Below, piece by piece: positions 1-58,580 of a DNA stretch of 64,000 bases (the first letter of the stretch is position 1; every line of letters starts with the position of its first letter). Source of the stretch: Macrostomum lignano (lineage: Eukaryota); NCBI GenBank assembly GCA_002269645.1, contig NIVC01000180.1, positions 1-64,000 of the forward strand, read 5' to 3'. The notes beneath the pieces are model-generated. The model saw only the letters and a list, made by a program, of their open reading frames with translations, searched no databases and was not told the DNA's origin. A program made the position numbers and the translations under genes.

Positions 1-36
1 TCATTTCAAGACAAAAAGTAATTTTACTAGAGAAGC

Positions 37-3000
37 ATGCAAACAAAAGTTAACACCGACCCTGGTCACCTGGGAAGCTATGAAAAACAGTTGGAAATCA
101 TCAAATCAATTAGAATCCAACCAGTATGCGCCTATAAAAAATTCTGCAAAGGAACACCAAGAGAGGAGTCGCAACTTAGTTAACAAATACGAAACTCTCA
201 CTGGTGAAAAAGCAAAGTACCCACAAAATAAGCAGGAACAAGAGAAATTAGAGCAATTAATCCATTTAAAAGAGTCGGAGCTTGCCATTGAAGAGATTAA
301 TTTTGCACAGAGGAAGTTTACAGAACATTACATAGAGTACACAATCCCAATTAAGGATACACCCGCAAACATCTACGACTATAAAGACAGCATCCAATCA
401 GTTGTTGATCACACACTCAAAACACGCAAGACTTTTAAAACTACAGATATCATTCAAGATTGCGTTTTATATGCCTGCAAAACCACTGAGCATCTCGAGT
501 ATTACATGACAACAAAGGCAAACCATTCACCCCTACTGACACACTGGATCCTTTCCTTCAAGATGTCACTAAGAAAATTGAAGCGTTTACATCCAGAGGT
601 TCCGGATGGGTCGTGGAGGGATTCAAAGAGCGACTGTCATGGTCATGAAATATGACCCACTTAAAGCCTCCTCTTATATAGAGCTCCCGCATAAGCTAGC
701 CGGCAAAAAAGCTTGCATAAATGTTAAAAATAAAGACAATTGCTGTGCTCTATGGCAGTTCTTTCTGCACTTATTAGTGTACCTCACCACCCGAAAGAAC
801 CTCAAATTATCAAAATTATTTCAACTACTATCTCATCGAATGCGAAAAGAAGGGAATCAGGTTTGACAAAGGAGGCTTGGCGATCTCTCAGATCCCAAAG
901 CTAGAAGAAGTGTTTAATAACAAAATTAGAATCACAGTCTTTGAGTGGAGTGAAAAAACTGAGAAAGTTCAACCGGTCAGATGTAGCAAAGACGTTTTAG
1001 ATCTGAGGGAAAAGGCGGACTGAAGTGGATCTTCTAGTGATTGGTAATTTACTAGAGGAGGCTCACTATGTTTGGATTAAAGATCTTTCAAGACTCATTC
1101 ACAAGCAGTTGAATAATCATCACGAGGCTGTTGCCATCTGCCGCTTGTGCCTTAAGCATTACAGTGGACCTGAACGCTTTTGAAAAACTAACAGAGCATG
1201 AATTATCATGCGAGGATCACCCAACAAACTGCTCTCTTCCTTCAGCTGAAGAGAAGTATCTCCGGTTTAAGAACTATCACAAGATGGAGAAGCTCCCATT
1301 TGTTGTATATGCTGATTTCGAATGCTCAATCATGCCAGAAACTCAAAACAAACTCAAACACAAAACAAACTCAAAAACTCAAAAACATGTCCCCAATTCA
1401 GTAGCATATGCCTTTATTAATACAAAAGGACTTGTTGAGTATAATTATTTCTTTGGAGAGCAGTGTGTGGAGCAGTTTATTGCCAGAATGTTAGAGTTTG
1501 CAAAAAGTGATTAGCACCCTTCAACCTGTTCCAATAATGATGACTGAGGAGGATGAAAGCAATTTCCTATCAGCAACTCATTGCCACATCTGCAGGAAAC
1601 ATTTAACTTGCACTAATATTAAAAACCCCACCGTTAGGGACCACTGCCACTTTACTGGGAAATTTAGAGGTGCAGCGCATAACACCTGTAATCTAAAGCT
1701 AAAATCGAACATTCATGATCTAACGATATTTTGTCACAACGCAAAGAACTATGACATGCATTTAATAGTTGAAAAATCGGCATGATTCCAGACATACACC
1801 TTGACTGCATCGCAGAGAACAAGGAGAAGTTTAAGTGTGTTGATATTAACAGGATAGGTAAAGTAATTCGGGTACAGGTAAAATAAGACTGAAGGATTCA
1901 TATCAATTTCTAGCTGCCAGTCTAGACGAACTAAGCAAGAATCTAAAAGATGAACAATGTACATATACAAAGATGTTTGCAAGTAAATTTACAACAGTGA
2001 TGAATCATTTAAACTCCTGAGAACCAAAGGCTTCTACCCCTATGAAAATATTACTGGGTATCACGTATTTGAAGAAGGTTTACCACCACAGGAGAAGTTC
2101 TTTTCAAAGCTAACAGACTCTGGAATCTCTGACAAAGACTATGAGCACGCGAAGCATGTCTATAATTACTTTAATTGTCAAAACTTCTTCCAGTATCACC
2201 TGCTTTACCTCTTCACAGATGTGTTTCTGCTGGCTGATGTGTTTGAAACCTTCAGATACACCTGGTACACAGCATATGGCCTCGATCCAGCACATTATGT
2301 GTCTCTGCCTGCCACTAGCTGGGAATCTTTGCTTAAAATGAAATGGGATCAAGATCCAGATTGGTACATTGAACTTCTTACAGACATTGACATGTACAAT
2401 TTTGTCGAATCGTCAAAGCGAGGGGGATCTCAATTTGCACAGTATGCAAAAGCAAACAATCCCTACATTGAATCTTACAATAAGGAGCAGCCCTCAAACT
2501 ACATTACTTACTTGGACGCTAATAATCTCTACGGGTGGGCGATGAGTCAAGATCTTCCAGTTAGAGATTTTCGATGGTTACCCTCATCAGAACAAAGTGG
2601 GACTTTTCATTGGCTGCCATTTATGAGTTGATGTTTACATTCCACCAGAGCTTCACGACTATTTCTCTGACTTTCCACCCTTCCCAGAGAACATCAAGTG
2701 CCCGAAATAATCGAAACTCCCAATGATAATAATGGAACTTGGCACCTGTCAGGAACAGAAAAAGAACATACAGAGAAACTAACACAGAATCTAAACAACA
2801 AGACACGTTACAAAATCCATTACAAACTGCTTCAGTATTTTATCTCACTTGGTTGCAGGTCACCAAAGTTCACGGGCTCTTACATTTACAGAGGAAGCGT
2901 GGATGAAACCCTACATTGATAAGAACACCCAGTTTAGGACCAAAGCAACCAACGACTTTGACAAGAACCTCTTTAAGTTGGCCAACAACTCTGTCTATGG

Positions 3001-3791
3001 CAAGACTCTTGAGAATGAGCGGAAAAGAACAAACCTGAAACTTGTTACCTCATCAGAGCCTGCTGTTATTCAGGCAAATATGTCAAAGCCAACATTCAAA
3101 GAACTCCATATCTTTAATAGCTACTTAGGTGTGATCATATTTTACAAAACCAAGGTGACGCTGCGCAAGCCGATCTATACAGGTGTCACTGTTCTCGACG
3201 AATCAAAACGTCTGATGTACCAGTTCTTCTATGGCATGAAGCAGCAGTACAAGGATAAATGAAACTCTTGTACACTGACACAGACAGTTTTATTATGGAC
3301 ATTCAAACAGAAGACATTTATCAGGACATGCTGCAGCAAAAAGATTTGTTTGACTTGTCTGAGTATGATGAATCTTTCAGGACACAGAATGGCGATCAAG
3401 TGTTTGACGCACTAACAAGAAAGTGATTGGGAAAATGAAGGACGAGATTGCTGGTGACATAATCACTGAATTCATTGGTTGAGAGCAAAGTCCTATTTTG
3501 TAAAATGTGAGTCGTCAGACCCAATTAAAAAATCAAAGGGAATTCCGAAACGTGTGGTTAGGAAGGAATTAATGAAGCTGAATACAGAGACGCCTTGAAT
3601 TGCAACAAAAAGACATCACATGAGTTCTCAAAGCTACAATCTAAAAACCATATTATTCACACAATTCAGCAAAAGAAGATTGGACTGTCAGGTGCAGATA
3701 ACAAGAGATTCATTTTTGATGACAAATTAACAGTCTACCGTTCGGGCATTGGAGATTAGGTTTAGGAGGTGAGGTTAGATTGGGTGATTAG
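37..3791 (+). pseudogene. polB: Protein-primed family B DNA polymerase (Polinton type), frameshifted as assembled
   Basis: Motifs run in order across frames: GSGW..YDPLKASSYIELP (~605-680), HYVWIKDLSRL, ExoI VVYADFE (~1310), VRDHCHFTGKFRGAAHNTCNL, HNAKNYD, KGFYPY, YLDANNLYGWAM (~2510), KLANNSVYGK (~2980), YTDTDS (~3271), KMKDE, DNKR. Likely start is ATG 37. Confidence 0.93.
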
Positions 3792-3855
3792 GAGATTAGG
3801 AGGTTGGGTTTAGGTTTAAGAGAAAGTTTAATAAACCTCATAAAAATACATAAAA

Positions 3856-4256
3856 ATGACGACAAATAACTTTCTTGAAGATTTGGCTAACGAACTGGAA
3901 ATCCCAAACTTTAGAGGAATATTTATGAGGGACACTCTGCCTGATTTTCCTCTAAGAAAGGAATGCGGCATCATGAACTTTGACACCACCGATAAGCCAG
4001 GATCTCATTGGGTTTGCTGGGTGATTGATCCCGATCGCAAGCACAAGTGTTATTACTTCGATAGCTATGGGACGGCAGTACCAGAAGAGCTAAGAAATTA
4101 TATGAAGGGAAAAATAATAAAAAAATTTATCGCTCAGACTTTATTCTCCAAGGTCTTAGCAGTGATATTTGCGGTGAGCTGTGCATGACTGTTTTGTATG
4201 CAATGACCAAAACACGAAAGACCTACAAGGAAATTATTCTTGGCTGTGTTTCATAG
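3856..4256 (+). CDS. Adenain-like cysteine (maturation) protease
   Basis: GSHWVC (His) and YFDSYG (Asp) lie in ORF 3856-4188. After one frameshift in the A-run at ~4120 the frame reads YRSDFILQGLSSDICGELC (oxyanion Gln, catalytic Cys) to TAG at 4254-4256. Confidence 0.88.
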
Positions 4257-4993
4257 GGTTCATTGTGCATTCTCGTCGTTTCTTGCCGAATTTCTTGCCG
4301 AATTTTTCGCGACTTTCTTTCCACATAATGTTGAAAAACTTTCTCGAGTTCATTTCTCAGCTGACTCATGTCATCAGTACCGACCATGTTCAAGTTCATT
4401 CGAATTGATTGTTCATAAAGATCCTGAATGGTTTTGAACTCATCCTCTGAAATGAACTTATCCTCGATTGCCCTTGAAATGTACCCTATGATTGATGTGT
4501 GCACCCCTTTCTCTTTTACTTGCTTCTCCTGTAGCTGCTTTAGTTTTTTTCGCCTGTTTCGCGCTAATGCTCCAGTAATTGCTGAAATAAGTCCACATGC
4601 AGCACCACAACCGAGTGGGATTGCGATTGGGGCTGTGATGCTGGCAACACTGAGACAGCTGCAGCAGATCCAGATAGAACAGACACAGATCCTAGAATCA
4701 TATTGCTGTAGTCGAAAAATTTACAGTGGTTGTCATAGCGCTTAATTTTCTTTGTGTGTAAAATATTTTTTTCAAGATCATCGCGCATTTTTGAATCTCC
4801 ACCATCGAAACTGTTGAGAGTTACAAGTAATGACGGGGTAAAGTGGTCTGAATATTGAGGTGCATTCAGATTCGATGCATTCAGATTCGGTGCCAGGTTT
4901 TGTGTGTTCGAATTCGGTGCATTGAGTTTGGTGCTGTCGGTATTTTAGGTTCAGCATATTGAGACTGATCGTATAGAGAATTTTGTTGGCCAT
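4223..4993 (-). CDS. Polinton accessory protein with two small-residue hydrophobic helices (putative membrane protein), split by frameshifts
   Basis: Joining frames gives LYPVI..FR..EIQKMRDDLEK..KRY..ILGSVSVLSGSAAAV..APIAIPLGCGAACGLISAITGAL..ISRAIEDKFISEDEF. I recognise this pattern from invertebrate Polinton-like elements; no search was run. Confidence 0.6.
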
Positions 4994-5084
4994 TTTTTTC
5001 TCTAGAAAAAATAAAAAAATTATAAAACTATCCGGTTGAAAGATCTGTTTTCTTTTTGATAATTCCATCTGCACCGCCGGTTGT

Positions 5085-5902
5085 CTAGGCGGCTCTCTTG
5101 ACGCCGGAGGATCGCGAGTCCAGCAGGCAGCGGCTGGGCGGCTGACGTTTGAGAGCGTGCCGGATTACTCCGTCGGGGTCCAGAGCTCCTTCTACTCGAT
5201 CTGTAGACATGACCGGACGAGCAGCAGATTCTGCTTCATCAATAGCAATATCACGAAGATTGAGTGTTCTCTCCAGACGATCAAGCCTCCTTATTATTTT
5301 ACCCAAGAGCTATACATTCCGTTTAGATAGCTACTGTGTGATACATCGTTTCTCTCTAATGCATCAAGTCTTTCTTTGATTCGATCATGCAACGATGTTG
5401 ACTGAGTCATGAACTCTTCTAAAGTATTGACTTTAACTGTGTTGGTTGCGACGTTTTCTTCAATTCTATCATGCAACGCTGTTGACTGGTTCATGAACTC
5501 TTCTAAATTATTTACTTTAGCTGTGTTTGTGAAAACTCCTCCTTCGAGAATACGCATCCGTCTATCAGTGGAATTTCTCAGAAGATTAACTGATGATCTC
5601 AAGCCGTTGATTAGCGAGACTATCGAAGTTATTTCTGACCTTAGTTCATTAGTTGCGTTTAACAACGGCGCATAAAGCTTATCACTTTCAAACTTCTGCC
5701 TAGCTACTTTAAGCCTGAGATCTTCCATGTTTATTTGCAACTGGTGCATGGAGCGCTCTAGGGCTTTCAGTCTGTTTTTATTCAGTTTGATCTCTGGGAT
5801 CTTTTCGTCGCTGTTGATATATCGCCTGTCAAGGATGGATATCTGAGCTGATGTAAGAGCGCTGTTGCCAGAAATGGATTCACCTGCAAAGTTTATCGAC
5901 AT
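5085..5902 (-). CDS. Coiled-coil protein (possible fibre/structural protein); ORFs 5294-5902 and 5085-5306 probably one gene
   Basis: Heptad-like helical sequence with an internal duplication (NTAKVNNLEEFMNQSTALHDRI / NTVKVNTLEEFMTQSTSLHDRI). An overlapping frame continues with LGKIIRRLDRLE. Confidence 0.55.
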
Positions 5903-5918
5903 CTTTTAATAGCAAATT

Positions 5919-6718
5919 TTAAATTACAGTTCTTTTTTCTTTGCTGATAATCACAAACTGGTAAGGCTGATTCCACTTGTCATAGCAAAGATTAACGAAT
6001 TCCTCTTGTGAAATCTTTCTGCTTGAGTTTTTTGTTGGATTTATGAAATAGGCAGGCGCAATGACCTCATTGTAAAATCTTTTAGCCTGTCCTGTGGAAT
6101 GGTTGGAAACAGGAGAATCAGATTGCAGTTCCCACGAATTGTTTTGTTCGGGAGCTCGAACCAATTCTGTGCAATGTAAATTACATTGCAATTGTTATGT
6201 CGCCCTCTTGTAAAATAGTTTTCTATCTGCTTCTGTGGGCCTGTCATACAATCATCAAAGACGATCAAATGCTTTCTCCCCTTTTCTAGCTCATCTGGTT
6301 GGGGTAGAAGTTTGGTCTTTGGATCAGCCTGTGGATCTCCATAGGTGAACACTTTAATGTTCTGCCATTTTTCATTGTCTTTGAGGTGCTTTGCATATTC
6401 AGCAGCTACAATTTCAGGGTTACTGGGAAGGCTCATTTGGTTATTAAAACATGCAATAATGTCCTCTTTGTGCAGTTTGTTTTGCAATCCAGAAATCAAC
6501 ATTTTATACTCATCTTGATACAGTGTGGGAGAGTAGATGTGCAGAGTGTCATAGTCGATAAAGCCAGGTCTAAGAAGCATGTTAAAGACTCTGAATGTTT
6601 TACCTGAACCTGATGAACCAACAACAATGCATCTGAAGTGACTCGGAATTGACTCGTGATGAGAAAACTTAATCTGAATACGCGTCCAGTGAGGATTGAA
6701 GTCGTTTGAAAAGTCCAT
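5919..6718 (-). CDS. A32/FtsK-like genome packaging ATPase
   Basis: Walker A GSSGSGKT, Walker B LIVFDD, and RGRHNNCNVIYIAQ. One missing A at ~6080 joins QDRLK to RFYNEV...KRTVI. Likely start is MDFSNDF at 6718. Confidence 0.93.
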
Positions 6719-6756
6719 TTTTTCTATGATGAAAAAAAATTTAAATAATAAATAAT

Positions 6757-6924
6757 TTAGATGTGTCATTTCGGGCTTAGATGTGTCATTTTGGGACTTA
6801 GATGTGTCATTTTGGTACTTAATTGTGTCATTTCGGGACTTAGATGTGTCATTTCGGGACTTAGATGTGTCATTTTGGGACTTAGATGTGTCATTTTGGG
6901 ACTTAGATGTGTCATTTCGGGACT
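6757..6924. repeat. 21-bp tandem array x8 (ttagatgtgtcattttgggac) inside the viral element
   Basis: Direct reading: 168 bp in the only long intergenic gap of the minus-strand gene block. Confidence 0.95.
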
Positions 6925-6950
6925 AGTCTTGTACCCTCGGAAAGTACCCT

Positions 6951-7340
6951 TTAGTCAAATTTGAAACCACTTCCTTTTTTAATGCTAGCCCTCATCTTCT
7001 CATAGACTGCAGGGTCCACACTGTCTGGATTTGGGGCCAATGGAGCCAGCGGGGCCAGTGGAGGCTGAATCTCTTGTTTAGGTGTTACAGTATCCTTTAT
7101 CTTTTTGGCTGCTGTGGCTACACTGCCAGCCGCTTCGGCAACGTTCTTGATGTTCTCTTTGTTCTCTCCAATGACCTTAAAAATCTTGGCCCCCTGAGCG
7201 ATCAAATCGGCAAGACCGTTCCCTGAGCGTTCTTTTCTTGGATAGTGGCCTGCAGGGAAAAGTCCAGATCCACGTTTAATGAGATTAAGTTCCTCTTTGT
7301 CATAGTATTTGTCAATGTCTTTTTCGAAAATAATTGGCAT
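6951..7340 (-). CDS. ~130-aa putative core/membrane-active virion protein with GxG motifs
   Basis: MPIIFEKD...KRGSGLF...RSGNGLADLIAQGAKIFKVIG...KKGSGFKFD; A-rich context before ATG 7340. Confidence 0.7.
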   Translation of the reverse strand: MPIIFEKDIDKYYDKEELNLIKRGSGLFPAGHYPRKERSGNGLADLIAQGAKIFKVIGENKENIKNVAEAAGSVATAAKKIKDTVTPKQEIQPPLAPLAPLAPNPDSVDPAVYEKMRASIKKGSGFKFD

Positions 7341-7356
7341 CTTTTTAAATAGAAAT

Positions 7357-8586
7357 TTATTTTTTGTTAAACCGTGAAAGCAAAAGTTCTCTTGCTCTTT
7401 TATCGATATATTTTCTCTCAAGCATCTTGTCCAGGATGTTGACAAATTCTTTTCTATTTTCATCTTTCATTCCGGTCTTTGCTGCTCCTAGAAGAACCGC
7501 TACTCGCTTGTAGATTTCAGAAATTCCTTTTCCAGTTGAGGGCGGTTGGTCTTGGGGTTGTGGAGTTGGTTGGGCTTGTAGCTGCTGGGGAGGTGATGCA
7601 AAAGACTGCTCACTTTCAGAGATGGAACTGTCATGTGGTGCCTGTCTTTGTTGAGGTGTGAAAACTCTTTGCTTGATTCTGTTCATTCGATCTGGAGAGT
7701 GTTGTTCTAAGTGTTGCCAGTCTGTCGGGTTTTGTTTCTTATATTCAGCCACTTTCAAAGGGTCTAACTGCTCGAGTTGACTGAGTACTTGTTCTTCTAT
7801 GGAATGTTGCTGCTGTTGTGGCGGTTGCTGTTGCTGTTGTGGTTGTTCTAGATATTTTATGACTTCCGCCTGATCTGGCAAACCGAACCATTGTTTAAAG
7901 TGCTTGTACTTTTTGAATTTAGTCAGGTTGACACCGCTATCGTACATGTGTTTCAAAACTTCTGGGACCTTTAGTATTTCTATATCTCTAGCAAGAGCAA
8001 AAGTCACTAGATTTCTGTAGTTCTTTAGCTGCTTCTCAGAGATTTTCTCTTGGTTCTTGGTCATAAAAGTCAGTAAGGTGTCTGTGAAAGGAATTTTCAT
8101 AGTTTCTGAGCCTTTGACAACAGAAATATTTTCCTTATTTATGTCGATATAATATTCCACTGGTTCATTATAAATGTTTCTTCTCCACACACTTATTCCA
8201 AATACATATTTCCCATCATGTTCTACACGCTCTACTGGTCCAAAAATATTATCTGTCACTTTTAGTTCCTGTTGTTGTGGTTGTGATTGTTGTGGTTGTG
8301 ATTGTTGTGGTTGCGGTTGTGTCTGTGGTTGCGGCAGTATCTGTGGTGCTTCTGGAATTTTGCCCAAAACCTTTTGCACTTGGGTTTCCTGTATGTCGTC
8401 GATAGTTTCTTTGACCTGATCAATATTTTTCTTAGCTTCTCCATACCCGGGCTTATGAAACTCTGTGGCTGCTTGGACAAACTCATTGTAGGATTGTTGC
8501 TCCTTATTTATTAGCCCGGTAACTCGTTTCTCTGCTTGTGCTAGCTTCTCCAATTCAGATATCTGCTGTGTACTTTTTCGCTTCAT
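7357..8586 (-). CDS. 409-aa Q/P-rich Polinton accessory protein with helical C-terminus
   Basis: Intact long ORF. C-terminus TGKGISEIYKRVAVLLGAAKTGMKDENRKEFVNILDKMLERKYI resembles a C-terminal motif common in Polinton-like elements (recognition only). Confidence 0.75.
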   Translation of the reverse strand: MKRKSTQQISELEKLAQAEKRVTGLINKEQQSYNEFVQAATEFHKPGYGEAKKNIDQVKETIDDIQETQVQKVLGKIPEAPQILPQPQTQPQPQQSQPQQSQPQQQELKVTDNIFGPVERVEHDGKYVFGISVWRRNIYNEPVEYYIDINKENISVVKGSETMKIPFTDTLLTFMTKNQEKISEKQLKNYRNLVTFALARDIEILKVPEVLKHMYDSGVNLTKFKKYKHFKQWFGLPDQAEVIKYLEQPQQQQQPPQQQQHSIEEQVLSQLEQLDPLKVAEYKKQNPTDWQHLEQHSPDRMNRIKQRVFTPQQRQAPHDSSISESEQSFASPPQQLQAQPTPQPQDQPPSTGKGISEIYKRVAVLLGAAKTGMKDENRKEFVNILDKMLERKYIDKRARELLLSRFNKK

Positions 8587-8616
8587 TTCTTATTTTATTT
8601 TATTTTTAGTTAAAAA

Positions 8617-9903
8617 ATGAACGACCCACTGACACCAGTTTTCTACAAAATTAACAAGCCTATTTTGAGTGATAATAGCACAATCAAAGCGACTCAGGTA
8701 AGAGTTCCCAGTCAGGAAAATCAGAATGAAACTAATCTTGGTCCTGGCCAAACACTGACATTTACATACAATGGATGTTCGTCTTTGGTTAGTGTGCACA
8801 GTCTTAAGAGCGGATTCCATATGACATTTCAATTCAAGACAAAGGGTGGTGCGGATGCGGCTCGTGCTAACGTTGACAAGCATGATGCGGATGTGGCTCT
8901 GATCAGTAACTTTTGGGCGTACATGTTCAAGGAGTTTAGTGTATCGAATGGGAGCACTGAGTTGGAGCGAATCGCCAACTTTGGAATTGTCTATGACGCT
9001 CATTGTTTGATCGAGAATCCTGATTTTATTCAGTTGGGAAGTGGTGCGGGTTTTATCGCAGATGAAAAAGAAGGAGACATCAATGACAGTGGCTATAAAA
9101 ATAGGAAGAAGAGATACAACTATGCTTTGCAAGGTGCAGATGATGCTGCTAAGAACCCGCTGTATCGGTCTGTTGATGTATTTGTACCATTGAGATTCAT
9201 GAGTGGATTCTGTAATACATTTAATCGACTGACTAGTAACTTTAGCTACACATTTAGACTGACTAGAGATGATCGCAGTAGAGTGTTGTGGACTGGGGCG
9301 GACCACACTGGGATGGCTGTGAAGCTAACCGGAATCGAGCTGTATTTGGAAGTCATTGAGCCAAAGACTGCACTAAAAGCGGATTATCTCAAGGCAATAG
9401 AGAAGGACATTGATGTTGCATACACGGCCTACATGTGTCGAGATGAGCGAAACGAAACTAGAACAAACATCTGCATTAAAGAGGGATCATGCAGCAATCC
9501 AAGGTATATCATTATTAATATGAGAAACCCAAATAGCATTATACGCTACATGCATGGAGACGTGCGGTCCATTCAGCATGAAATCAGTGATAATCTTTAC
9601 CCTGCACTGCCACAAAATGGAGATTTCAGTCAGAACAAGATTAGCAAATTTTACAGCGAGTTGGTCGACTTGGCTGTGAAAGAGAACAATGGAATTGCTA
9701 TCACTGCTCTTCAATATGGAACTCTATATCCGATGTTTGGCGCTGATGTGTCTGCCAGACAAATGCCTACTGATAACAGCCCTGTGAATATCGTGACTAA
9801 CATTGAGAGGACTGCCGCAACACCCGTGGACTTGTACATTATCTATGCATTTGAGAGGAAGGTGAAGCTTAACATGATCAACAATTCATCCAGTAAAGTT
9901 TAA
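8617..9903 (+). CDS. Major capsid protein (double jelly-roll, Polinton PY/hexon-like)
   Basis: Intact 428 aa, beta-rich. Motifs NFWAYMFKEFSVSNGSTELERI, VFVPLRFMSGF, PRYIII, LYPMFGADVSARQ. Size and position upstream of the penton gene fit. Confidence 0.85.
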   Translation: MNDPLTPVFYKINKPILSDNSTIKATQVRVPSQENQNETNLGPGQTLTFTYNGCSSLVSVHSLKSGFHMTFQFKTKGGADAARANVDKHDADVALISNFWAYMFKEFSVSNGSTELERIANFGIVYDAHCLIENPDFIQLGSGAGFIADEKEGDINDSGYKNRKKRYNYALQGADDAAKNPLYRSVDVFVPLRFMSGFCNTFNRLTSNFSYTFRLTRDDRSRVLWTGADHTGMAVKLTGIELYLEVIEPKTALKADYLKAIEKDIDVAYTAYMCRDERNETRTNICIKEGSCSNPRYIIINMRNPNSIIRYMHGDVRSIQHEISDNLYPALPQNGDFSQNKISKFYSELVDLAVKENNGIAITALQYGTLYPMFGADVSARQMPTDNSPVNIVTNIERTAATPVDLYIIYAFERKVKLNMINNSSSKV

Positions 9904-9923
9904 ATATTTTTTTAGGACAAAAA

Positions 9924-10787
9924 ATGGAAGCTATAGCCGAAAGACTAAACAACATTGTTTCACACTCTAAGGAGAGCATTCCTATTACAATAACTGGGCG
10001 AATTAATGACTCAAACGGGATATTTGTTGAAAAATTAGAGCAGGCGATTCGCCTGGATCCTGGCGCTAATTACCATGTCTATCTTAACGACTTCACTGGT
10101 TGGTCAAACGTTCCCAATGTGATGGCAGCAAATAATAAGTTTTATTACAAATGGAAAGGTGCAGCAGCAGACCCTGTGGTATTCCATGTGAGCACGCAAA
10201 GTGTGGATACCTACAATAACTTTCTAGAAAATGTCTTTACTAAGAGAGGCCATTTTGAGACACCTGATGCGAGTAAGCCAGAGAAGAAACTGTTCCCTGT
10301 CAAACTAACCTATGATCTCACTGTAATGAGAGTGGTCATGCAAGTTCACAAAGATGCGGAGGTTGAGTTTAAAGATGACACTTGGTATAGGGAACTGGGA
10401 TTCGAGAAGAAAGTTTATAAGGCAGAATCCGCGGCGCGGACCGCCACTCAAGCATCGGGGACCGTTAAAATGGCCCGGGAAAACGTAAGCGGTTTGTTCT
10501 TAGCACCCAATATTGCAGACATTGTAAAGGGTTTGAATATTCTAATCAGAAGTAATCTCAGTCTTGATTGGGTATTTAAGGGAAAGCGAACTAATATTTT
10601 GTACAACATCTCCAACTCTGTAGCTGGAGGACAGATGGTGGTAGAGAAACCAAATCCAGTGAAAAGAGTTGTATTGAGTAATAAGGAGATTCACGAGATT
10701 GTGCTACAGTTTGAGACTGAAGATGGGGTGGGTGTTGATTTCAACGGTGAAGAGTTTGTACTGACGTTGATCATTGAGAGAATGTAA
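9924..10787 (+). CDS. Minor capsid protein (penton, single jelly-roll)
   Basis: Intact 287 aa. N-terminal IRLDP..YHVYLNDFTGWSNVPNV..NNKFYY and C-terminal VEKPNP..IHEIVLQFETEDGVGVDFNGEEFVLTLII match Polinton penton patterns. Confidence 0.85.
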   Translation: MEAIAERLNNIVSHSKESIPITITGRINDSNGIFVEKLEQAIRLDPGANYHVYLNDFTGWSNVPNVMAANNKFYYKWKGAAADPVVFHVSTQSVDTYNNFLENVFTKRGHFETPDASKPEKKLFPVKLTYDLTVMRVVMQVHKDAEVEFKDDTWYRELGFEKKVYKAESAARTATQASGTVKMARENVSGLFLAPNIADIVKGLNILIRSNLSLDWVFKGKRTNILYNISNSVAGGQMVVEKPNPVKRVVLSNKEIHEIVLQFETEDGVGVDFNGEEFVLTLIIERM

Positions 10788-10795
10788 GAAAAAAA

Positions 10796-11032
10796 TTACA
10801 ATTGCCTAATGATTTCTGCAAAGTTAAAGTAGCTGTCGTAATCGTTAATGACTACTCCATACTTATGAAACCAATGTCTTTGGAGAGCTAGATTAATATT
10901 AGGGACATTGATTTGAACGTCGGGCCAATATTTTCTCATGTACTCGCTGCATTCCTTCTTGCATTGGTACTTACTCTTGTAATTAGGCTCGTGCGTTTTG
11001 TAATAAGAACCTGGAGAGACAACTGGAAACAT
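10796..11032 (-). CDS. 78-aa orphan viral ORF
   Basis: Converges on the penton stop 8 bp away and has the same AAAAATG start context as other element genes. Confidence 0.5.
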   Translation of the reverse strand: MFPVVSPGSYYKTHEPNYKSKYQCKKECSEYMRKYWPDVQINVPNINLALQRHWFHKYGVVINDYDSYFNFAEIIRQL

Positions 11033-11229
11033 TTTTAGAGAAAAATTAGATTTTTTTCAATGGGTAAGGACCCTGCGCTGATGATTTAAAGTTTTAGGGA
11101 TCTGGTTTCGCGTTGCAAATTGAATGTGGGAAGAAGAATGCAGATTATTTTCTGATTGTTTCGAAGATGCTATGGGTGGATGTCGGTGTCAATGAGCATA
11201 ACAGGTGTTAGTGGACATCTGTTATGCTC

Positions 11230-11443
11230 TGATTCTGTCAGGGATAGTAATGGATGGATTTAATAGGATTATGTTCGAAGTTTTCGGAGCAAGTGCGGCC
11301 CCTCCCCTTTTTCATGATTCTGTCGGGGATAATATGGATGGATTTAATGGGATTATGGAGGACGTTTTGTGAGCGAGTGCGACCCCCCTTTTTTCTGATT
11401 CTGTCAGGGATAATATAGATGGATTTAATGGGATTATGGAGGA
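11230..11443. repeat. ~80-85-bp degenerate direct repeats (tgattctgtcagggata...ggattatg), probable subterminal region of the element
   Basis: Copies start at 11230, 11315 and 11396. Confidence 0.75.
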
Positions 11444-11566
11444 GGTGAAAAATTTTGTCCTAGAAGCCCCCTCATGCCTTCTACTCGATTTTTAGAATCC
11501 ACCCACCCCCTCCGGTCACCAAGCTTTTGGTCACCAAGCTTTTAGTCTATGACACAAGTTCTGGTT

Positions 11567-12331
11567 AGAATGGTGTACAAAGCCGATGCTCAGAAATATA
11601 AGACATTCCACACTTAGAGAATGGTGTACAAAGCCGATGCTCAGAAATATAAGACATTCCACACTTAGAGAATGGTGTACAAAGCCGATGCTCAGAAATA
11701 TAAGACATTCCACACTTAGAGAATGGTGTACAAAGCCGATGCTCAGAAATATAAGACATTCCACACTTAGAGAATGGTGTACAAAGCCGATGCTCAGAAA
11801 TATAAGACATTCCACACTTAGAGAATGGTGTACAAAGCCGATGCTCAGAAATATAAGACATTCCACACTTAGAGAATGGTGTACAAAGCCGATGCTCAGA
11901 AATATAAGACATTCCACACTTAGAGAATGGTGTACAAAGCCGATGCTCAGAAATATAAGACATTCCACACTTAGAGAATGGTGTACAAAGCCGATGCTCA
12001 GAAATATAAGACATTCCACACTTAGAGAATGGTGTACAAAGCCGATGCTCAGAAATATAAGACATTCCACACTTAGAGAATGGTGTACAAAGCCGATGCT
12101 CAGAAATATAAGACATTCCACACTTAGAGAATGGTGTACAAAGCCGTTGCTCAGAAATATAAGACATTCCACACTTAGAGAATGGTGTACAAAGCCGTTG
12201 CTCAGAAATATAAGACATTCCACACTTAGAGAATGGTGTACAAAGCCGTTGCTCAGAAATATAAGACATTCCACACTTAGAGAATGGTGTACAAAGCCGA
12301 TGCTCAGAAATATAAGACATTCCACACTTAG
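11567..12331. repeat. 51-bp tandem array x15, near-identical
   Basis: Unit agaatggtgtacaaagccgatgctcagaaatataagacattccacacttag; 765 bp; three late copies carry one A>T variant. Confidence 0.97.
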
Positions 12332-12804
12332 AAAATGCATGTATTAAATAAGCAAGACAACATCGCTCAGTCACCAGACTCAGTTGCCGTCGTCGATACA
12401 CAACTCCGTAACAGCCATGCCATATAGCCCTTACGTCTGAACAACAACAGCTATGCCACAACAGCCATGCCTTTTTATCACTTGTGCTTTTTGCTTTTCC
12501 CACTGCTGCACCTTCACTCCGACTCTGCTGCAAGAATCCTGCTCAACTTCTTTTCTCCTTACACAATGCAATCAATCTACGTACGGTTACAGTATAGATA
12601 CAGAAATAATCTTGAGGACGTTTATGATGTTAAAGTTAACATAAAGAAGAGAGTTGCCGCTATAAATCTGTGCAAAATGATGTTATTTGGATCAGCAGAA
12701 CAAGATATATAGTGATAAGTAACACTACTTGATGGACAGCCCTCCTAGATTAGATAAAAAACTAGACTAGATTAGAACTAGAATAAACTAGATTTCAACT
12801 CTGA

Positions 12805-16315: not shown

Positions 16316-17715
16316 TTAATTACCACTGCAATTGTTCAGATGAAAGTGGATTGCGATGTCACTGCTGCGTGATTGCTCAAGGGCTGCACGTCGAATTTGA
16401 CGAACATCGATCACAGCGGAACATTCTTGAAGTTGCTCGTCACTGGTCCGTTTGCACTGGCGCACACCCACCAAGCTCTTGTGGCCAGTTGTCTCCATGA
16501 TTTGTTGTTCATCGAGTCCAGCATGGTACAATCTTGTGGCACAAGTGGCTCGCAGGCTGTGATTCCGCTTGTTTCCCTAGACACCCGATTCTTCACAGAG
16601 ACGCTTCAACATGGTCGAAACGTATTCTTACCAAGTGGATGCTTGTTGTATCAACATGTCTCAGTAGGATTCCGCATTGCCTGCAGGTAAAAGCGACTGG
16701 TGTCTGTTGGGCGTAAGCTGGCAAACTTCCTAGAGTCGAACATGGTTGTGTTCGAGCTTAGCAACGTCCAGAAAGTGCAAGACTTCTTTAGGAGCAACGC
16801 GCTTGTCTTTCAGCCCTCCAGTGTAGGTCTTGGGGTTTCTCTCTTGGTAGATCAGACACTCTACGTCGTTGTTTTCCACTCGAAATTGGTCGATAGTGAG
16901 GTTACAATGTTCATCGCGACCCCGAAGCGCGAAGTGCAGGCCATTTAGATAGAAGAGGGTGCGAGTCAGTTGGTCAGGGTTCTTGTCACCAAGTTGTTTC
17001 TCCCAAAGTTGCGCCTCTTCTTCGAAGGAAATCGTTTCAGCGCTCTTGCGCTTTAGGCCATTGCCCTCCTTGGTAGAAATTTTCATAGCAGCATCAATCG
17101 AATCAGTGACAACTTTGAAGTCCTGACCCCGAAAGGAGTCCACAGGTGGATTTTTACTGCAAGTTTTAACTGCATTTTTTTACTGAATCTGTAGTCCAGC
17201 AGCGATGGAGACAATTGATCCAGAGGATAGCGTTCTCCATTTTGTTTGCAAACTTCGTGGACGAATCGCGGGAGCAAGTCACGTAGCTGGTCGTGACGCA
17301 GTTCACCAACCGTGCCTGGAAGTCGGGGAAATCTGGTAGCCATCCAGGCGGTGAACACTTTACTCGCCCACTTGTCTCTATCCAGTGTCTTTAATGACTT
17401 CGTACCGTCGTTAAGAGCCATGGCATCTTCGAAAATTAATAATGATCCGAAGCGATTCGATGGAGACGTTCCGGACTCCTGCGACGTAGCTGTTGTCATG
17501 TATCTGCCAGTAGTTAAGCTGCCAGTAGTTATGACGGCTAAGCTATCATGATGATTATGAAGGTCTCCACCGACAGCTAAGACAGCATCGATGTCAGATT
17601 GGCGCAGTCGATTCGGATCGAAATCACCAAAAAAGTCTACGCCATAGTCTACAAGTAGATTTATTATATAATAGGTTATTCGTAAGTGAGACTTCAGGAT
17701 AATCGGCCAACTCAC
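16316..17715 (-). mobile_element. Decayed Crypton-type tyrosine recombinase (DUF3504/ZMYM-like) gene
   Basis: RFVHEVCKQNGERYP, LFYLNGLHFALRGRDEH, NHSLRATCATRLY, TGHKS..VRQC. In-frame stop at 16577-16579 plus frameshifts. Confidence 0.85.
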
Positions 17716-18031
17716 GTGTGCGCGTAGTAAAAAGACTTTTTTGCATCCCCACAGTCAACTGCATGGGAGATTCGTAAAATGAGCATACAGTAATGTGTTG
17801 GTGAAGATCAAAAAACAATGAGATACAAGCTTAAATGGCATAAATATGGGATTTACAGTTTTAACTGTCATATACGAGCTACTTTTCTTATAATGCTTTT
17901 CTGATATTAAGCCGAAATGCTACGACAGGACATTCTAGCTGCAAAAGCTTTCCTGGGCGTCTTAAGCACCGAGTGACTTTGCTTGTTGCACGTGCCTTCT
18001 GAAAGACTGCCAGTCCTGCTTGACATACGAG

Positions 18032-21370
<3,339 letters not shown>

Positions 21371-56840: not shown

Positions 56841-57380
56841 AAACCATCAATTGGACCTCCTTGGGCTATGTACCAGTGGCATGGAGAGAGGCTTGAGTGA
56901 TCTTATATCCTGAGGTGAAAAGAAATTTACTTTTGCATTTTACCAGGCCAATTTTTTCAATTTCAACTACAGTGTCGCGAGACACCGTTTTCGCTCGCCA
57001 AAATTACTCGAAGTATCCATGCAAGGGATTGAAATCAAATTTTCAAGTTTTAAACCTCCAACGCATAAAAATATAAGCTACGAGCGTATTGAATCGGATA
57101 GATAGAGTCAATTATTTTTTCGAAGAAGAGCTATAAATGCAAAATTTTGAGGCAAGGGTGTCGGCTACGCGAGCGGCGCGCGATTGGTCTATACAGATGT
57201 GTCCAGATCGAGAAGATTGTGTGTCCACGAAAAGCAGCGCCCCTACAAGTACGGCCAACAGTCCCTATTGGTTGTCTCTCCTTATGAAGATGAATTAAAG
57301 TTTTACAGGCCGTCAGTCTCCTACAAGACTGAAAGACACCCGATACTGCACTGTTAAAAACAGCTAGATTTTAAGCGACC

Positions 57381-58580
57381 ATGCGACCTCTACTCGGCGC
57401 CTGTCGAGTCAAGCCACTTAGAATAGGGATTTTTGTAGGCGGCATGGCAATGGGAGCAGCCCTCTCCTTCCTGCTGTGCAGCCTGCAGCTGACGCACTCC
57501 AACGCAGTCATTGGAATGACTCACATTTCGGCGCCCACCGGACCTTCAGCCTTGGTGGAGGGGAAAGAGCTGATTCCACCGAACATTTACACCGGGCAAA
57601 ACGGCGCCTTTCAGAGGCACTACGACCAGCTGGTCCGCGGCATGCGCGAGTCGCTGTACCGCTTCGACAGACCCGGCCTGCTGCTGCCGCTCATGCGGCT
57701 CTCCGAAGCCGAGAGGAGCCGCTCGCGCCGAGCAGCGGCCGGCAGGGCGTGGCTCCACAGCCAGTCGGCGGTGGTGGCAGCCACCGTGCGCAACGGCATG
57801 GACGGCCTGCCGAGCACCATGCACAATGTCCAGCGCCTCAGAGCTCTGTTCAACGATTCCTGGCTGGTGCTGGTCGAGAACGACTCGACGGACTCGACTC
57901 GCAGCTTCCTGTACAACATGATGCTGACCGACCCGAATGTGCGGCTGCTGGGCTGCGGCCGGGACGTCAACTCTGCGCTGCCGTGCGAAATCAACGTCCG
58001 CTACGGCAGCGGCCGCCAGCACCTGCCAGGTGTCCAAATAAACCGCACCTTCTCCGAGGAGGTCGAGCGCGGCCTGGCCATGTCCGCCCTCCGCAACCTG
58101 TACCTGGACTACATCTACGAGCACCTGGCCGACCGGGCATCGCTCCTGCTGATCGTGGACCCGGACATCACCTGGCAGGACTGGGATCTGGACAGCATCG
58201 CCCAGGGACTTTACTACTTTGCGGCCAAGCCCAAGCTGCAGCAGCTGTGCGCCCACACTACTCAGGACAGCCACCTCTACGACCCGTGCACGCTGAGCTT
58301 CCACCTGAACAAGCGCTTCGGCGAGGACACCAAGTACCCGGTGGTCAGCTACGAGAGATCGCTTCGGGACGCACCGCGCAGCCTGCCGCCGGTGAAGGTG
58401 GAGAGCTGCTTCCAGGCCGTGTCGTTCTACCGGATGTCGGCTCTAGCGGCCCGCAGGCTGCGCTATCGACGCAGTCCTGGCGAGTGGATTTGCGAGCACA
58501 ACACGCTCTCCCGGCAGCTGGACGAGGTGTACATCGACCCGCAGATGCGGCTGCGAGTCACGTCAGGAAATATTGGCTGA
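57381..58580 (+). CDS. Intronless type II membrane glycosyltransferase, CAP59/GT69-like GT-A fold
   Basis: 399 aa. N-terminal TM helix; VLVENDSTDST, MSALRNLYLDY, LLIVDPD, VKVESCF, CEH, VYIDP. GC3-rich like the host exons. Confidence 0.75.
   Translation: MRPLLGACRVKPLRIGIFVGGMAMGAALSFLLCSLQLTHSNAVIGMTHISAPTGPSALVEGKELIPPNIYTGQNGAFQRHYDQLVRGMRESLYRFDRPGLLLPLMRLSEAERSRSRRAAAGRAWLHSQSAVVAATVRNGMDGLPSTMHNVQRLRALFNDSWLVLVENDSTDSTRSFLYNMMLTDPNVRLLGCGRDVNSALPCEINVRYGSGRQHLPGVQINRTFSEEVERGLAMSALRNLYLDYIYEHLADRASLLLIVDPDITWQDWDLDSIAQGLYYFAAKPKLQQLCAHTTQDSHLYDPCTLSFHLNKRFGEDTKYPVVSYERSLRDAPRSLPPVKVESCFQAVSFYRMSALAARRLRYRRSPGEWICEHNTLSRQLDEVYIDPQMRLRVTSGNIG

Follow-up and report, generated by a model that had tools for sequence, protein, structure and literature searches.

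The first 64,000 nucleotides of contig C180 (NIVC01000180.1) in the Macrostomum lignano genome assembly GCA_002269645.1 (764 Mb, 5,269 contigs), hereafter called the window, open inside an integrated virus-like element. Window positions 1-11485 form the right 71% of this 16.2-kb element, which ends at 11485 and not, as the original prediction had it, at 11520. The window begins at the contig start, and the integrase and left end were correctly expected to lie outside it. Searching with the right junction recovered a second assembly of the same insertion on contig C3158, where the element measures 16,156 bp and is bounded by terminal inverted repeats of 690 bp that are 99.7% identical. The hexamer CGATTT flanks the element on both sides in C3158 and occurs once at the empty site on contig C741. 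The left arm missing from the window is seen in C3158 and carries integrase, PLA2-like and pX-like genes; the upstream integrase, inverted repeats and 6-bp target-site duplication that had been proposed as checks are all found there. From the left, the gene order runs through the left repeat, a variable slot, the PLA2-like gene, the integrase, the pX-like gene, the protein-primed DNA polymerase of family B (pPolB) and the protease. There follow, on the opposite strand, a hydrophobic gene, a coiled-coil gene, the ATPase, a small basic gene and a glutamine-rich gene, and at the right end the major capsid protein (MCP), the penton or minor capsid protein (mCP) and the right repeat with a 78-aa open reading frame (ORF) (Table 1). 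The predicted accessory ORFs with short spacers are present, five in number and tightly packed.

Profile searches of the window ORFs against Pfam matched the A32 ATPase (E 2e-6), endonuclease VII (E 4e-5), a DJR-like capsid family (E 1e-4, below the curated cut-off), DNA_pol_B_2 (E 0.003) and adenain (E 0.004). Unbroken ORFs from other copies of the element matched DNA_pol_B_2 (PF03175, E 1.7e-17) and A32 (PF04665, E 8e-7) above cut-off, adenain just under it (PF00770, E 4e-4), the rve integrase (PF00665, E 1.5e-8), an Adeno_PX-like gene (PF05829, E 1e-6) and a PLA2-like gene (PF08398, E 7e-14). The integrase ORF is also present in C3158, and 117 of 117 scored candidates match it. The polymerase, protease and ATPase named in the original prediction have Pfam support that is weak in the window, where all three are frameshifted, and clearer in the unbroken ORFs. 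None of the 10 proteins queried matched PHROGs. Protein-primed family B polymerase and rve integrase occur together, a pair lacking from most Polinton-like viruses (PLVs) in the available part of PMC5499653, so the element falls outside the PLVs as described there. Judged by its genes, the window element is a Polinton/Maverick with a gene set ordinary for the group, and the proposed Polinton/adintovirus identity is borne out by gene set, inverted repeats and 6-bp duplication. The description of the element as an AT-rich island was partly accurate: its GC content is 38-43%, against 43-59% at 13-22 kb, but it is 41% just outside the element and 25-34% over most of 23-30 kb.

Table 1 Features of the element, in window coordinates
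Feature	Position	Strand	Basis and remarks
pPolB	1..3771	+	Pfam; 29 frame-breaking gaps relative to a naturally intact frame in a different copy
Adenain/Ulp1-type maturation protease, 133 aa where unbroken	3856..4255	+	Pfam; one frameshift here
Accessory gene whose product has a basic coiled coil and two hydrophobic segments, up to ~240 aa elsewhere	4284..4992	-	Broken (two ORFs)
Coiled-coil accessory gene, ~270 aa in other copies	5085..5902	-	One frameshift here
A32-type packaging ATPase, 266 aa where unbroken	5919..6718	-	Pfam; one frameshift near 3' end
Tandem array of a 21-nt unit, between ATPase and next gene	6757..6924	.	Repeat analysis
Small basic protein, ~129 aa, G-x-G motifs	6951..7340	-	ORF; neither Pfam nor PHROG match
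Glutamine-rich protein, 409 aa, unbroken	7357..8586	-	ORF; family-less
MCP, 428 aa, unbroken, predicted double jelly-roll	8617..9903	+	Model pLDDT 54, Foldseek
Penton (minor capsid) protein, 287 aa, unbroken; jelly-roll of penton type predicted	9924..10787	+	Model pLDDT 77, Foldseek
78-aa ORF within the terminal inverted repeat, hence at both ends of many copies	10796..11032	-	Family-less
Right terminal inverted repeat, ~690 bp	10797..11485	.	Ends ...CTTCTACT; 99.7% to left repeat in C3158
Sub-repeats of ~81 bp inside the right terminal repeat	11228-11446		Repeat analysis
Target-site duplication CGATTT	11486..11491	+	Both element sides in C3158, once at empty site on C741

The jelly-roll folds expected of the two capsid candidates were found by Foldseek on predicted models. 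For the MCP, modelled from a 10-sequence alignment with low confidence (mean predicted local distance difference test, pLDDT, 54), all matches listed among solved structures are double jelly-roll capsids, namely PBCV-1, iridovirus, EhV, PM2, Sputnik, mavirus and faustovirus (best E 1.2e-10, template-modelling (TM) score ~0.3). A search of a viral structure library agrees, at ~10% identity. The penton model, from 14 sequences, reached a mean pLDDT of 77 and best matched the mavirus penton (E 1e-9), followed by adenovirus penton bases. The models thus predict a double jelly-roll capsid for the 428-aa protein and a single jelly-roll penton for the 287-aa protein. The PF21738 profile was passed by 8 of 8 MCP profile relatives tested.

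Both capsid genes had been called divergent; the relatives found number nine for the MCP (43-77% identity) and 13 for the penton (38-64%), all on contigs shorter than 4 kb. A profile search with the MCP returned 539 proteins at E<0.001, which outside the close clade are ~20-27% identical among the matches listed. Annotation of the relatives offers nothing beyond 'hypothetical protein' in 10 clusters, and Atlas look-alikes of the MCP are nameless or DJR-like, with recognition below threshold. In a FastTree phylogeny of 99 rows of 380-520 aa (shorter and longer matches were left out), the window MCP falls in a 10-row clade (support 99) beside 18 metagenomic proteins; the tree holds no named references and hence gives no taxonomic placement. 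Loci of capsid relatives sought in viral and metagenome contigs yielded none confirmed, and the penton alignment gave no usable pattern. These sequence comparisons support a divergent capsid lineage whose close relatives are nameless in the searches made. The gene set itself is ordinary, and two left-arm genes (PLA2-like and pX-like) match described adintovirus genes.

The polymerase has abundant relatives. A search of proteins of at least 1295 aa returned 2,516 at E<1e-50, and the 120 listed are 39-47% identical, many carrying an endonuclease VII domain (PF02945); named ones come from the lacewing Chrysoperla and the corals Stylophora and Oculina. By these matches the polymerase is mainstream, of a common animal type. 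Its pfam03175 match is weak (64 bits). Terminal-protein and vOTU domains, N-terminal in the polymerase domain model that PMC11161782 presents in the part available, were sought with Pfam at the N-terminus without a match.

Among the accessory products, the 4284..4992 gene has no Pfam match above cut-off, and a resemblance to adintovirus 'GasderminX' is presumed. The coiled-coil protein could possibly be a fibre. The small basic protein is a possible protease-processed core protein, judging from adenain sites.

We next consider the family to which the element belongs. The exact 22-nt terminus occurs 346 times in the assembly (180 forward, 166 reverse; control 0), so that the copy count suggested earlier comes to the order of 170 assembled elements; independent insertions are fewer, because some were assembled two or three times. 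The best 98 of 663 MCP nucleotide candidates scored are all 97-100% identical. We fetched 31 two-ended elements, 26 as pairs from the first 100 listed termini and five chosen by MCP matches. The 6-bp duplication is perfect in 22 (two of which are one insertion), has one mismatch in three and is absent from six. For variants shared between copies, the ratio of nonsynonymous to synonymous polymorphism (pN/pS) is 0.09 for the integrase, 0.13 for pPolB, 0.09 for the protease, 0.04 for the ATPase, 0.06 for the MCP, 0.10 for the mCP and 0.17 for the pX-like gene, which shows purifying selection on all seven core genes (0.04-0.17); private variants give 0.2-0.6. Median divergence from the nearest neighbour is 0.9-2.3%. 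A second MCP type appears in 5 of 30 alignments and a second penton type in 5 of 32 (76-79% nucleotide identity), and the ATPase is also of two types, while the polymerase backbone underneath is 94-97% identical. The family is real, young and abundant, with mosaic modules.

Several further features were seen among the copies. The variable slot, between the left terminal repeat and the PLA2-like gene, spans up to ~2 kb and holds different genes of 260-300 aa in different copies (for example L042:1133-1954, L061:1141-2052 and L079:8344-9123). Two variants are 27% identical (E 8e-13) and others share a faint C-terminal pattern only; the slot proteins have no Pfam match above cut-off, no PHROG and no useful Atlas match. 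Copies of 20-32 kb on C27, C48, C217, C422, C741 and C860 hold nested insertions in polymerase or accessory genes, by eye reverse transcriptase ORFs of long interspersed element (LINE) and long terminal repeat (LTR) type and one DNA transposase. The element at C716:368,625-392,104 has flanks that are reverse complements of each other and not a direct duplication, and carries a ~7-kb insertion with several AT-rich ORFs. DUF3504/QRICH1-type ORFs, which we take to be tyrosine-recombinase-derived and Crypton-like, lie inside the left arm of one copy (L065:886-1944) and, broken, in the host flank at window 16730-17754 (PF12012, E 4e-13). On C67, at ~349,000-365,500 (L068, L107), a partial copy of the window family adjoins a member of another, distant Polinton family. 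The MCP of this second family is 20% identical to the window MCP (PF21738, E 2e-13), and the family also has an ATPase, an endonuclease VII polymerase, integrase-like and pX-like ORFs and a PriCT-2/D5 primase-helicase-type gene.

The original prediction described a complete virion-morphogenesis module. As assembled, the module is incomplete: pPolB, protease, ATPase and two accessory genes are broken, while the 428-aa (8617-9903) and 287-aa (9924-10787) frames are, as stated, unbroken in the ORF list. Counted against natural unbroken frames from other copies, frame-breaking gaps in the window number 29 in pPolB and one each in the protease, ATPase and coiled-coil gene; survey-wide their densities per kb are 1.96 in pPolB, 0.57 in the integrase, 0.31 in the MCP and 0.18 in the penton. 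Single-base losses make up 117 of the 145 pPolB break events. Over 12.5 kb the window and C3158 differ by 118 gaps but 36 substitutions. Within 5 kb of its contig start lie 40 of 48 single-base losses of the window, and within 5.5 kb of its own contig end lie 37 of 54 of those in C3158. C3158 has eight MCP and four penton breaks where the window has none in either gene, and 3 of 29 pPolB breaks are common to both assemblies. Because the twin assemblies disagree mainly in gaps, each near its own contig end, most window frameshifts are likely consensus errors, and frameshifts in such repeats cannot count as decay without accurate reads.

Evidence bearing on replication came from four near-palindromic insertions, in each of which one arm is duplicated in inverted orientation and replaces the other arm. 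Three are right-arm palindromes without integrase, on C633 (4.8 kb), C1584 (1.75 kb) and C1652 (4.7 kb), and one, on C975 (5.4 kb), is a left-arm palindrome without capsid genes. Three of the four were found via MCP or polymerase match lists and one among the 26 terminus-chosen pairs. The C1652 palindrome appears in three assembled contigs (C1652, C276, C3945) with an identical junction, and every palindromic insertion retains its direct 6-bp duplication. The arms of a palindrome differ by 0-1.3 mismatches per kb, versus 6-35 to the nearest other copy. One copy-back junction falls at the 21-nt array in another copy. Inner terminal repeats have a median identity of 99.7% within a copy versus 88.3% between copies, with the own partner the best match in 8 of 9. 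Missed-adapter chimeras were considered as a source of the palindromes and rejected, since the flanks are direct duplications. Among the entries listed by a literature search, none described copy-back Polintons.

Taken together, these results make it probable that the window carries most of an integrated copy of a recently active Polinton/Maverick, which inserts with 6-bp duplications, likely replicates as free linear DNA and would package in jelly-roll capsids. The many near-identical copies and the unbroken, capsid-like genes of this one point to likely recent spread, and particles may therefore still form; selection on the capsid genes makes virion formation plausible for the family, but the non-capsid genes of this copy are broken as assembled. 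Adenovirus replication provides a model for a strand-displaced linear genome. By analogy, the element's own protein-primed polymerase would replicate it as free linear DNA through a displaced single strand whose inverted ends pair. Such pairing would keep the two ends of one copy alike, and occasionally the polymerase would replace one arm with a copied-back version of its counterpart. The palindromes and their retained 6-bp duplications suggest that copy-back took place during replication of a free linear genome, before insertion. The jelly-roll capsids would package this DNA, and the capsid genes would be kept since particles are, or recently were, made.

Several observations weigh against this reading. 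The duplication is absent from 6 of 31 paired elements. Over the outermost 200 nt, only 20 of 33 elements are matched most closely by their own partner. Three palindrome junctions were searched, with 40 candidates scored for each, and each was found at one insertion site only; these single-site junctions do not demonstrate multiplication of palindromic forms. The MCP model is weak (pLDDT 54, TM ~0.3) and its Pfam DJR score lies under cut-off. Three pPolB breaks occur in both assemblies, one of them in no other copy examined, and the window insertion may be genuinely defective. Survey-wide, pPolB carries ~2 breaks per kb versus 0.2-0.3 in the capsid genes, an excess for which we conjecture uneven assembly polishing.

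The strongest alternative, to which we give somewhat less than an even chance, is that the palindromes arose within the chromosome after insertion, when repair that was primed at the inverted repeat ran on into the opposite arm, or that they are misassemblies; either way they would be uninformative about a free form. The single site of each tested junction is consistent with this, as are the error-prone assembly and the junction overlaps, which measure 0-3 bp at three junctions and 10 and 41 bp at two more and fit ordinary repair. However, one palindrome was assembled three times with an identical junction, the flanks are direct and not inverted 6-bp duplications, unlike a read-chimera artefact, and both right-arm (three) and left-arm (one) forms occur.

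It is also quite possible, if less so, that the Polinton now moves only inside cells as a transposon, with capsid selection dating from a recent viral past or serving an intracellular job, and makes no infectious particle. No particle, free DNA or on-record RNA was seen. The window stretch is found in 20 of 24 sequencing runs, which come from 8 studies and one organism and include none recorded as RNA. All 30 bins of 1-11050 are covered by contigs from one DNA run and from three runs presumed to be RNA; we count this neither way because carry-over DNA of a high-copy repeat could give the same. Purifying selection among copies reflects source lineages and need not be current, and private variants have the higher pN/pS. 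Against an exclusively intracellular life, a shared polymerase backbone carries two types of capsid (MCP 97-100% and 78-79% nucleotide identity), both mostly unbroken, and MCP relatives at 70-77% on short contigs of other data sets suggest a wider circulating lineage.

Very improbable, finally, is that the host maintains intact capsid genes in integrated copies and lets the polymerase decay, as incipient domestication or capsid supply in trans: the MCP is unbroken in 21 of 30 and the mCP in 26 of 32 alignments, against 1 of 22 for pPolB (the reference itself), whose break density is about six times higher, but these breaks are mostly single-base losses, private substitutions are alike in all genes (1.5-3.5 per kb), the pN/pS of pPolB does not exceed that of the others, the capsid breaks of C3158 are absent from the window for the same insertion, and among 117 pPolB matches scored, 5 fall within open frames of 1,170-1,295 aa with the match stop-free.

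The preferred reading, a recently active Polinton, has a bolder extension that we regard as rather unlikely: a currently active animal polintovirus, existing as a recombining swarm with two capsid types, a swappable slot, free linear DNA, integrating copy-back defective genomes and particles. If this is true and the host can be kept in the laboratory, it would offer an immediate setting in which to search for animal Polinton virions. In the available parts of PMC11131425 and PMC7805220, infectious particles and replication of animal Polintons are still argued from genomes, and the former reports expression of such genes in corals. With ~170 assembled copies, sites both filled and empty, selection on all virion genes and palindromic junctions, the young family provides concrete targets in an untouched host, in which one can search for particles, for free linear DNA and for copy-back junctions.

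Genes flanking the insertion include FG-GAP (integrin-alpha-like) and protein-kinase exons, in keeping with an animal host. Contig C741 carries a different copy 384 bp from the empty site, where C3158 is empty, giving reciprocal filled and empty sites on homologous stretches of C741 and C3158/C180. The window locus and the C1652 locus were each assembled three times, which suggests genome duplication or polyploidy. Window 11567-12337, which begins 80 bp away from the end of the element, is a host-side array of ~15 near-identical 51-bp units; it was rejected as part of the element, since it also adjoins the empty site. Between MAPK-like kinase exons, window 19137-20532 holds a fold-back element with inverted arms of ~480 bp (96-99%) and a 450-bp core. 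The 401-aa ORF at window 57375-58580 is intronless, weakly matches CAP59 mannosyltransferase (E 4e-6, below cut-off) and is unusual among animal genes.

Compared with known systems, the window family shares pPolB, rve integrase, protease, A32 ATPase and the genes for major and minor capsid proteins with Polintons/Mavericks (Polintoviricetes). Its 16-kb length, 690-bp inverted repeats and 6-bp duplication lie within the ranges of 13-25 kb, 100-1500 bp and 5-8 bp given in the part of bioRxiv 10.1101/2023.08.22.554363 available. It differs in a capsid lineage with no named relative in the searches made, in some copies having 1.75-5.4 kb inverted arms and in a variable slot adjoining the left repeat. 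Adintoviruses, as the accessible portion of PMC8502044 describes them, carry PLA2X and pX-like domains, and their polymerases fall into Alpha and Beta classes between which modules are exchanged; the window family resembles them in its animal host and its PLA2-like and adenovirus pX-like genes, but here PLA2 and pX occupy distinct ORFs with the integrase between them and do not form one PLA2X gene. In the same portion of PMC8502044, Beta is marked by a divergent polymerase with a weak pfam03175 match, as here, and PLA2 is tied to Alpha virion modules. The two classes are told apart by an archetypal versus a divergent pfam03175 polymerase and by a PLA2X versus a GasderminX module. The signals are therefore mixed, the weak pfam03175 score suggesting Beta and the PLA2-like gene Alpha, in a comparison by description only. 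Coral and insect Polinton polymerases share the endonuclease VII domain, with none of those listed close (39-47%). Mavirus and adenovirus provide the best structural matches of the penton model, and mavirus and Sputnik MCPs are among those of the MCP model, a fold-level likeness at ~10% sequence identity in both cases. Among the entries listed by a literature search, none described a Polinton from the genus Macrostomum; Repbase-type repeat databases lay outside it, and prior cataloguing is possible. The group and the gene set are known, and to them the family adds a divergent capsid lineage and informative palindromic derivatives.

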